Below are positions 916 to 3,900 of a stretch of 64,000 nucleotides of DNA, piece by piece; the stretch's first letter is position 1, and each line of letters starts with the position of its first letter. A program made the position numbers. The stretch lies in NCBI RefSeq assembly GCF_058153355.1, contig NZ_CM177019.1, one strand, 5' to 3'.

Positions 916-3900
916 TGATGAGGGACACGGTGCCTGTTTCATAAAGATCATTTATACCCGTCATACTTCAAGTTGCATATGCGTTGGCAAGTTATTCAGG
1001 GATAGCCGGATGAGTGACATCACCATCCGGCTTAAGATTCCATACTCTAAATAATTCGAGTTGCAGGACAAAACGCCAGTGGCGTTTTGAACAACTCTTG
1101 CGTTGACCCTGAAAGGGTGAGGCCTAAGGCCGAGTAACGCGACAGGCGAGTGACAAATTCGTCGGGAACGAATTTGACCAGCCTCTGGCTGGCCTTCGGT
1201 GAAAGGCATCCTGCCTTTCAGTCATCCCCAGTCACTTACTGGGGTGAGCGACAAATCCGCATGGAGCGGATTTGAACGCTGCTTGCAGCGGTCCCGTAAG
1301 GGGTGAGGCCCATGGATGGGCCGAATAACTCGCAGACGCAGCACATGCAACTTGAAGTATGATGGGTATATACACAATGAACTTCAAGACACTTGCTTCG
1401 GTATCTGGAAATTATCATTAATTCTGGATGAGACCAGCCTTGCTATATCTGGCAACGTTTCTTCAAAAACGTCGATATTGTATCCCTGAAATCTCACGCA
1501 CTGCTGAACCGGCATGTTCATTCATTATTTATCCAGGCCATTTGCAATCAGTACCATCACTATTATATGCCTCAATATTTTCTTCAAACTCAGTTATTTT
1601 TCCACTTTTCGATTTATAGTAAGATCTATTAAATATTGCACCCTGCGTAGCAACAACATACAATCCGTTGACTTTACACCCTATAACCTCACTCCATGTA
1701 TAAGTAAACTCTGAAGGTCTATCATCGAAAGTCATTTCCAATATTTCGTAAATGCAGGAGGTATGAATTTTGAGGACATTCCATAAACCACATAACCTAA
1801 AACAACATCACCAGAAGATACTTCAACAAATTTTAAATTTATCTTCCCCAAAATAAAACAGCCAACCGTAGTTTGTTATTTAGCAAGTAAGAAAAAGGGC
1901 ATCAAACAAAACATTAAAACAAATAATTTAACTTTCATATCATTTACACCAATTCAGTTATTCGCCTCTGTACAAAAGCACACACAGATTTTGAATTAAT
2001 GGCGTCCAAAAACATAATCGGATAAAAATACCACACCGGAATATTACTGATATAGCGGGATCTTACTCATTCGCTAAACTGAAAATGCAATTGAACAGAA
2101 ATTTCTTACTAGTGTTTAGATACTCGAAAAGGAAATCAACTCACTGGCAAGTATCATAAGCTCAAATTGGCATATTGTATATTCCCATAAATAATTTTAT
2201 TTTTTTGATTAACATACTCAATACTACACATCACTAATTGAGAGAAGATTAACTTCATCATCTTTGATTAGGTACGTTTTTTAATTTTCAATGACGCATC
2301 ATAAAAAAGGGCTTCCCAAGTTTAACACTAATAACAGGATATAAAGAAAATATATTGCTATATGAATCCTTTGGCGATGTTTTGGTTATCGTAATCTTTC
2401 CTTCTTTCAAGTGCTCTGCTATTATATGAAATTGAATCGGTCTTGTTGCATCACTTACCCGCAATGGATTGCCAGCGTAAGCTTCATACCCTCCACCATT
2501 ATTCATATGTAAAATAGTGTATTCGTCATTTAAAAATGGCTGCTTACTATCGTAGACTTGGTAGTATATATTACTTATATCAAGATAAATTACTATAGAG
2601 ATATACTTAATTTTTCATTTAGCATTAACGATGTATCCATGGAATCTATACATCTTTCAATATCAGTTATTTTTTCTTCTATATACGTAGCATAACTTTG
2701 TGGCACTGGCGTGTTTAGCCCTCATATACCCTCTTTAACTAAGACACCATTTTGCTTGCTTTTTACATTGTAATAAAGACAATCAATATTGGATTTATTA
2801 TTTTTATATTTCAGTGTTGTATATACAGTAAAATCATGCAGCGAACGCCCATCTGAAACAATTGCGGGCGTGTCAGAAAAAAGTCAAATGAATAAGATGG
2901 ATTATTTTCATAATCAGTCATAAATTTCATCTTTCTTATTTCATGATCAACGATCGCATAGATCTCATGATTAGATTCATCATATCCATAAATGATTTCA
3001 CCACCAGTACTGGCAGTAGCAGTAGCAGTAGCAGTAGCAGTAGCAGTAGCAGTAGCAGTAGCAGTAGCAGTAGCAGTAGCAGTAGCAGTAGCAGTAGCAG
3101 TAGCAGTAGCAGTAGCAGTAGCAGTAGCAGTAGCAGTAGCAGTAGCAGTAGCAGTAGCAGTAGCAGTAGCACTACTACAAATCAACATAATTACAAGTAC
3201 ATATCTAGTCAAGTTGAAAACCCTTAGGGGCGGATGATGTTTTTTCCAAGATGGATTGAAATTTTTCAACATAAGAATCCATTAATTGCTTCTGATATTT
3301 TTCATTAATTATTTTTCGCGTATTATCATATTAAATTTTATCACTATTAATATATTTGGGGATTTTTACTCGTAAAAATCCCCGCCTCCATTCCCCAAAT
3401 CATAATTGATACAGGACACAACTCTAGCAATGGTATCGTGAATAGTTTTCTTTAATAAGGCACGTCTCAATTCTTGAACATAAATTCGAATTATTTAGTA
3501 AAAAAACATCATCCCTGGTAGTATTACCTATTTTTGCATAATGCTATATTTATAGTAAACAATTCACAAGAAAATATTATTACTAATATTTATATTCCTC
3601 CCACTGAGCACCATATCGATGCTTTAACAGTTCAACTTTAATTTCATCATATGTTTTAACTTTACTACCATCAATCTTAAGACGAATTTTATTCGAGGTG
3701 ATATCAACATAATTTCTATTTTCCCCACCCGCGGGGAAAAAATCAAACATAAAATTAGACATGTTTTGTTCTTTTTTCATGAGAGCTCCATATTCACACA
3801 TGTCATTTATATTTTGTATGTATGGAGCGCCCCCCTGACATGATGGATAATGAAAATCAATTATAATAAAAAGCGATTTATTGATACTCCTCTGAAAGAA

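Follow-up and report, generated by a model that had tools for sequence, protein, structure and literature searches.

The GCAGTA array and its length in different strains

The DNA analysed here, a stretch of 64,000 nucleotides of contig NZ_CM177019.1 (assembly GCF_058153355.1; hereafter the window), carries close to its beginning a tandem array of the hexanucleotide GCAGTA, which reads TACTGC on the minus strand, the strand of the decayed gene in which the array lies. A regular-expression check places exactly 26.0 perfect units at 3013..3168, and Tandem Repeats Finder (TRF) reports the array at 3013..3171 with a period of 6, 26.5 copies, 100% matches, no indels and a score of 318. The perfect (GCAGTA)26 repeat described in an earlier inspection of the same DNA (the sequence-only reading) is confirmed by both methods, as is its start at 3013; the end given there, 3170, lies two nucleotides beyond the last perfect unit. 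The head-to-tail arrangement exceeds chance, with 25 matches of an 18-mer of three units in the window against none in 100 dinucleotide-preserving shuffles, and no other long tandem array exists in the 64 kb, all remaining TRF rows having at most 3.3 copies. A variant unit with one mismatch to the repeat (GCACTA on the plus strand, TAGTGC on the gene strand) flanks the array at 3169..3174.

The array forms an island of 50% GC within DNA of about 30% GC and is translated as (Ala-Thr)26 in a minus-strand open reading frame (ORF) of 153 residues (2811..3272). Five of the six reading frames are open through the array, so that an open frame at this place is not in itself evidence of coding. Neither strand has a hairpin potential above that of shuffled controls (z -0.81 and +1.99); a hairpin-driven instability was rejected on these grounds, and no structure-driven mechanism is indicated.

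A comparison of the Escherichia alleles revealed a wide range of copy numbers. A single unit is present in contig L011 (GCTACTTCC), possibly the proto-state of the array, two units in the complete E. coli genomes MFDS1022581 and MFDS1019527, three in the complete E. coli genome N96, and two to five in the called proteins of other Escherichia assemblies. Longer arrays of 12 units (L007, GCA_012304085.1), 15 units (L006, GCA_041885765.1, and L018, GCA_018016635.1) and 20 units (L019, GCA_019258625.1) lead up to the 26 units of the window. Every one of these arrays is pure and all length changes are of whole units, within flanks that are at least 97% identical across the length-variant alleles (98.4% between the window and each of the complete genomes), as in a variable-number tandem repeat (VNTR). 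The closest pair, L006 and L007, shows a single mismatch in 3.5 kb and yet differs by three units (15 versus 12), and each flank haplotype carries differing copy numbers repeatedly. At the level of the aligned alleles, the comparison shows whole-unit, homoplastic and rapid length change of a pure array in DNA that appears unconstrained. The sequence-only reading had proposed a recent expansion or ongoing slippage, which is supported by the 1 to 26 units found among near-identically flanked alleles; the length is not invariant between strains.

The slippage-prone tract appears to be wider than the perfect array itself, since the neighbouring variant unit TAGTGC is expanded to three copies, encoding (Ser-Ala)3, in L012 (Logan SRR30535881) and converted to a perfect TACTGC in L013 and L014. 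Long pure repeats are hard to assemble and the window does not by itself validate its own count, so the 26 units might be an assembly or polishing artefact over a truly short array. This is extremely unlikely in view of four independent assemblies whose arrays, all of them pure, count 12, 15, 15 and 20 units, and of the behaviour of L004 (GCA_015332025.1), a short-read assembly with one mismatch in 3011 nt to the window, whose contig stops right at the edge of the array, the outcome expected where reads or k-mers are shorter than the repeat. The Logan contig L005 stops at the same edge.

The decayed host gene and its parent family

The ORF at 2811..3272 was used, with its array collapsed to three units, as a phmmer query against 1.84 billion representative proteins. 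Beyond the Escherichia cluster, the matches comprise proteins of 242, 307 and 309 residues and a fragment of 161 residues, whose first 70 residues or so match the ORF. In tblastn searches with these relatives the homology runs on 3' of the ORF through other frames interrupted by stops (E 1e-36), and the whole decayed gene extends over approximately 2154..3212 on the minus strand, equivalent to about 308 codons once the array is collapsed. A repaired translation aligns over 308 of 309 columns with 43% identity (hhalign E 2.4e-78) to an alignment of 30 intact members of the P0030 family from Klebsiella, Cronobacter, Siccibacter, Buttiauxella, Yokenella and Dickeya, a homology that covers the full length of the family. 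The 153-residue ORF is the 5' stump of this gene preceded by about 20 upstream codons that are probably non-native. The native start is probably a TTG (3210..3212), which gives MTRYVLVIMLICSS... and aligns with the M-N/S-K-Y... signal-peptide start of the intact members.

A closer inspection of the reading frames shows how the gene is disrupted. Frame -1, that of the stump, runs to a homopolymer at 2877..2882 (T6 on the gene strand), where one additional T would restore the sequence FDFF-SDTPAIVSDGRSLHD; the final 20 codons of the ORF are out-of-frame read-through past this frameshift. Homology then proceeds in frame -3 to about 2600, through an in-frame TGA (2722..2724) at the family-invariant Cys116 and three further in-frame stops (2593..2595, 2590..2592 and 2575..2577). 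It passes to frame -2 at 2614..2303, a segment holding a separate ORF of 72 residues (2288..2506, minus strand) that gene callers list on its own and that is a fragment of the C-terminal half of the pseudogene. The last part is read in a mixture of frames -3 and -1 with further stops until the stop at about 2154, and stops in the alternative frames of this C-terminal part lie at 2299..2301, 2281..2283 and 2268..2270. In addition to the TGA at position 116, the invariant residues Cys195, Trp203, Cys241 and Cys304 are replaced. With at least three frame changes and the TGA, no frame of 305-317 codons survives intact and with its conserved Cys and Trp, and the window copy is, on its sequence, a pseudogene of the P0030 family and not a functional member.

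The homopolymer frameshift is present in all 13 Escherichia alleles examined and the TGA in every allele aligned, including the unexpanded, single-unit L011. The gene would therefore have been dead before the alleles diverged, and the array would have grown inside a pseudogene. The alignment locates the array at the end of the Sec (general secretory) signal peptide of the relatives (...S-F-A | D...), that is, at the former cleavage site, and none of the aligned relatives has a repeat at this position.

The T-run was also considered as a recurrent, programmed or phase-variable frameshift site, an idea suggested by three truncated relatives (P0025, P0026 and P0032) that change frame right after FDFF. 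It was rejected for P0025, whose contig, L020, is noisy, and was dropped, not disproved, for P0026 and P0032. When set against an intact gene of 94% identity, this Klebsiella contig (GCA_045619985.1) shows dozens of single-nucleotide homopolymer indels; it probably comes from long reads that were not polished, and truncated proteins derived from it, such as P0025, are probably artefacts. An origin of the decayed gene as a paralogue of one of the neighbouring immunity-like genes, encoding proteins of 323 and 273 residues, was discarded as well (BLASTP E > 0.4).

The parent family is intact at 305-317 residues in Klebsiella, Cronobacter, Salmonella, Dickeya and others, and its members are Sec-exported proteins of about 308 residues. 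They include P0030 and P0033-P0072 (for instance L015 1546..2475) and constitute an uncharacterised exported family that is widespread in Enterobacterales, with no match in Pfam or NCBIfam. A confident AlphaFold model of the family (predicted local distance difference test score, pLDDT, 89.2; predicted template modelling score, pTM, 0.85) is rich in beta strands, and in the PDB the predicted fold has one informative match only, over some 56 residues that resemble SH3b. A larger gene precedes the intact members, which start 1-3 nt after it; in L015 this gene encodes an EF-hand and a GH19-type lysozyme region and matches endolysins and the PDB entry 8XCL. That entry is the lysozyme domain of TseP, a type VI effector which is encoded alongside its experimentally shown immunity protein TsiP (PMC11893102). 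Placed directly after TseP-like effector genes, the family thus occupies an immunity-gene position. From this gene position its members are presumed to be periplasmic immunity proteins, and the family is a candidate new type VI secretion system (T6SS) immunity family. In the window the gene upstream of the stump is the unrelated one for the 323-residue protein, itself located after a copy of an M35 peptidase gene; with no TseP-like effector gene beside it, the window copy is an orphan.

The gene stump and its surroundings

The polymorphism of the stump was compared with that of its neighbours. Summed over allele pairs, the ratio of non-synonymous to synonymous polymorphism (pN/pS) is 1.10 in the stump, with 3 synonymous changes against 18 non-synonymous or nonsense ones, compared with 0.28 in the gene for the 323-residue neighbour, 0.38 in the M35 fragment, 0.47 in the 72-residue fragment and 0.12 in mnmH. 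The variable sites fall at codon positions 1, 2 and 3 in the proportion 8/8/4, without third-position bias, and their density (6.3%) is close to that found upstream (7.3%) and downstream (7.8%). The stop of the ORF is polymorphic (TAG versus CAG) and some alleles shift frame in the stretch 5' of the TTG, with the result that the start and the N-terminal frame vary between alleles. The numbers are small and all point in the same direction: by these measures the stump evolves like non-coding DNA, without coding constraint.

Annotation and motif searches agree with this picture. In all three complete genomes with the locus, the Prokaryotic Genome Annotation Pipeline (PGAP) leaves the array free of any coding sequence, and gene callers do call the ORF in several assemblies, as differing small "hypothetical proteins". 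Against Pfam and NCBIfam the stump gives nothing significant (DUF3836 at E 0.15 is noise), an exact-product look-up finds no record of the 153-residue product of the window, and scans for promoters and terminators around the stump remain at chance level.

In this scenario the proposal of the sequence-only reading that the repeat lies in a small ORF, where slippage would tune the length of a Thr-Ala linker, retains only its observational part. The minus-strand ORF at 2811..3272 does exist; it is not a gene but the initial piece of one, of about 308 codons, that has been disrupted several times, and with a pN/pS of 1.10 and no coding sequence annotated by PGAP the linker finds no support. The pseudogene and constraint evidence favours the other option of that reading, namely a VNTR that is non-coding and lies in degraded DNA. 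A real small exported protein or lipoprotein with a (Thr-Ala)n tether adjusted by in-frame slippage would account for the frame being open in all alleles, for the hydrophobic, signal-peptide-like N-terminus, for the frame-preserving unit of 6 nt and for the calls made by gene callers in several assemblies. It is nevertheless very unlikely, as such a protein would comprise no more than the 60-odd codons with which the mature part of a 308-codon fold begins, plus 20 codons read out of frame, and the lack of purifying selection outside the repeat, the unbiased codon positions, the variable start and stop, the lack of PGAP annotation and family matches and the chance-level promoter-like sites all speak against it. 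Neither the intact frame nor the selection outside the repeat that an in-frame, repeat-length-variable secreted or surface protein would show is found here.

Several observations weigh against the reading of the locus as a neutral VNTR in a pseudogene. The pN/pS value is based on just 21 substitutions. In every allele the stump retains a start codon (ATG or TTG), an N-terminus similar to a signal peptide and 91-153 codons of open frame, given which a translated stump product is conceivable. The indels within the stump (a 6-nt duplication, a 9-nt deletion and the hexamer changes) are all multiples of three, which could be a hint of residual frame conservation; the exception, a 1-nt change in an A-run, lies upstream of the probable native start, and both the duplication and the hexamer changes are mediated by repeats. 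Assemblies made with short k-mers would be unable to span more than about 5 units, and short alleles would for this reason be over-represented in the sample. The indel pattern is also the only hint toward a further possibility, that the stump is a young gene recruited from the remains of an immunity gene, exporting a (Thr-Ala)n peptide of strain-variable length or one with many tandem Ala-X-Ala signal-peptidase sites, with array length under diversifying selection; on the sequence this seems highly improbable.

The stump is located at the tail end of a type VI island. At its start the window cuts into mnmH/selU (34..918, plus strand); the best match of this gene in the 5426 complete E. coli genomes has 98.6% identity. 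After mnmH come about 6.5 kb at about 30% GC (roughly 1500..7900), the AT-rich tail of the type VI effector and immunity island, which holds the array. The island is headed by vgrG (7845..10283), followed in the direction of the minus strand, on which all these genes lie, by the gene of an M35 metallopeptidase effector (7064..7891), that of the 273-residue exported protein (6219..7040), an ISAs1 remnant, an orphan C-terminal fragment of vgrG (5288..5632) and an orphan second copy of the M35 effector gene (4496..5295). This second copy is intact (266 residues) in N96 and other strains and is broken in the window by a stop at about 4810, where N96 has a Tyr, and by a frameshift near 4600. The next gene (3583..4554), the array-side upstream neighbour of the stump, is intact and encodes the secreted protein of 323 residues, which shows no homology to the decayed gene and is presumed, from its place after the orphan M35 copy, to be an immunity protein. 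Between this gene and the stump lies a hairpin with a perfect 12-bp stem at 3358..3384 (GGGGATTTTTAC-TCG-GTAAAAATCCCC), which has no T-tail, is not called by the terminator scan and bears several substitutions in the alleles. On the other side, at 1529..1938 (minus strand), an in-frame stop together with a frameshift splits the homologue of WP_000865233.1, a hypothetical exported protein of 137 residues in N96. Judged by these lesions, the entire tail from mnmH to the vgrG island is decaying in the window strain.

The array lies 415 bp downstream of the intact gene for the 323-residue protein, and its 50% GC within AT-rich DNA would also suit a cis-regulatory element, one that acts on the orphan effector and immunity genes nearby, for example as a spacer of variable length or by impeding the binding of H-NS. 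Such a role is scarcely credible. The array is placed downstream and not upstream of that gene, everything further downstream on the same strand is pseudogene, no promoter or terminator stands out from chance, and alleles of 1 to 26 units coexist with no correlated changes nearby.

The locus is rare. Megablast detects it in 3 of the 5426 complete E. coli genomes, and a sensitive blastn search, directed also at diverged E. coli copies (such as ybbD of K-12), returned the same three genomes only. A scan with a conserved 20-mer found the locus absent from the GTDB species representatives and the JGI metagenomes, with one chance match each in a contig of 43% GC and in a Lachnospiraceae metagenome-assembled genome. 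Several of the carriers, annotated as Escherichia sp. (HH154_1D, 10290 and HH091_1A) or as E. coli STEC_7v (proteins P0006, P0008, P0020 and P0021), are strains of cryptic clade I, and it may be this clade, and not E. coli proper, for which the locus is typical.

Other parts of the window deserve mention. At 40000..44000 lies part of a giant SiiEA/BapA-like adhesin gene. The matches listed first for it span the full query with about 84% identity, and the majority of the 958 genomes that match show 80-95% identity, a sign of a divergent lineage or allele. At 61468..61652 a unit of 91 bp occurs 2.0 times in tandem (91% identity) and contains palindromes of the GCCGGATGCG...CGCATCCGAC type; it looks like repetitive extragenic palindromic sequences or bacterial interspersed mosaic elements (REP/BIME). 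Imperfect tandem repeats with 75% matching are found at 22063..22158 (33 bp, 2.9 copies) and, as a coding repeat inside vgrG, at 8528..8600 (24 bp, 3.0 copies).

Origin of the array and comparison with known systems

The array is most probably a neutral, fast-mutating hexanucleotide VNTR inside a pseudogene, the high mutation rate being expected by analogy with VNTR loci of E. coli O157. The host sequence was once a gene with about 308 codons that encoded a Sec-exported protein, presumably a periplasmic immunity protein. The Escherichia copy of it is an orphan at the far end of the island of vgrG, M35-effector and immunity genes beside mnmH, and would have been inactivated before the present alleles diverged. 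The seed of the array may have been the cryptically periodic sequence AGT-GCT-ACT-GCC-AGT-ACT at the signal-peptidase cleavage region, with one or two TACTGC units, from which slipped-strand mispairing in replication, as the main process, would have produced gains and losses of whole units. With the protein under no selection, the length would be uncapped and the alleles would drift from 1 to at least 26 units, and a threshold effect by which long alleles mutate faster would keep the arrays pure. The stump frame stays open as (Ala-Thr)n as a consequence of the length of the 6-base unit and not of a function.

RecA-dependent unequal exchange would be a possible source of large steps within this process. 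That unequal recombination between sister chromosomes, and not replication slippage, is the main route of length change appears rather unlikely, and sequence data alone do not tell the two apart. Large jumps are indeed seen, such as 12 versus 15 units, or 5 versus 15 versus 26 on similar haplotypes. A tract of 156 bp is, however, short for efficient RecA exchange. In the long VNTR alleles of O157, where multi-unit events reach 23 units and recombination is discussed as a contributor, slipped-strand mispairing is regarded as the predominant mechanism (PMC3777172). The 6-bp VNTRs of the same organism change by whole units at 4.4e-5 to 1.8e-3 per generation, and faster above about 13 units (PMC3777172); from the O157 loci of more than 13 units, a rate of at least 1e-4 per generation would be expected for the long array of the window.

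The practical value of the locus is modest, as a previously undescribed and highly discriminating length marker for a rare Escherichia lineage, and it calls for caution in annotation, since short-read assemblies break at the array and gene callers invent differing small proteins there. It also provides a clean natural example of array growth, from 1-2 to 26 units, after the host gene had lost function, in keeping with the idea that it is selection on the protein, and not the mutation process, that normally caps in-frame coding repeats. The array opens no new biological question.

A full-text literature search retrieved no description of a GCAGTA/TACTGC VNTR in E. coli; the matches were primer coincidences only, and an identity with a known locus of multiple-locus VNTR analysis (MLVA) was rejected on this basis. 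The closest likeness is nonetheless with the E. coli MLVA hexanucleotide VNTRs (O157-10, TR3, TR4, TR7, O157-3 and O157-37), which share the 6-bp unit, the pure arrays and the whole-unit changes, together with alleles of up to tens of units, a strong length polymorphism among near-identical strains and the expectation that the longest alleles are the most mutable (PMC3777172). The present array differs from them in its locus, in its unit and in its placement in a rare accessory region. With the simple-sequence contingency loci of Haemophilus, Neisseria and Campylobacter it has in common an in-frame repeat tract that changes length by slippage. It departs from those loci in that its unit length, a multiple of 3, allows no ON/OFF switching, in that lesions of another kind (an independent frameshift plus stops, common to all alleles) have already put the host gene out of action, and in that no sign of selection on a product is seen; it is not a phase-variable contingency gene.

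The decayed host gene, in turn, resembles the TseP-TsiP pairs in that its family is Sec-exported and encoded 1-3 nt 3' of TseP-like genes with EF-hand and lysozyme regions. The window gene differs in being disrupted and in having no adjoining TseP-like effector gene, and the immunity function of its family is presumed from gene position. A similar parallel holds with the orphan T6SS immunity genes found after vgrG and effector modules, as the decayed gene is surrounded by orphan copies of effector and immunity genes at the tail end of a vgrG island. Set beside these systems, the array is a new locus of a well-known kind, and its behaviour is not surprising.

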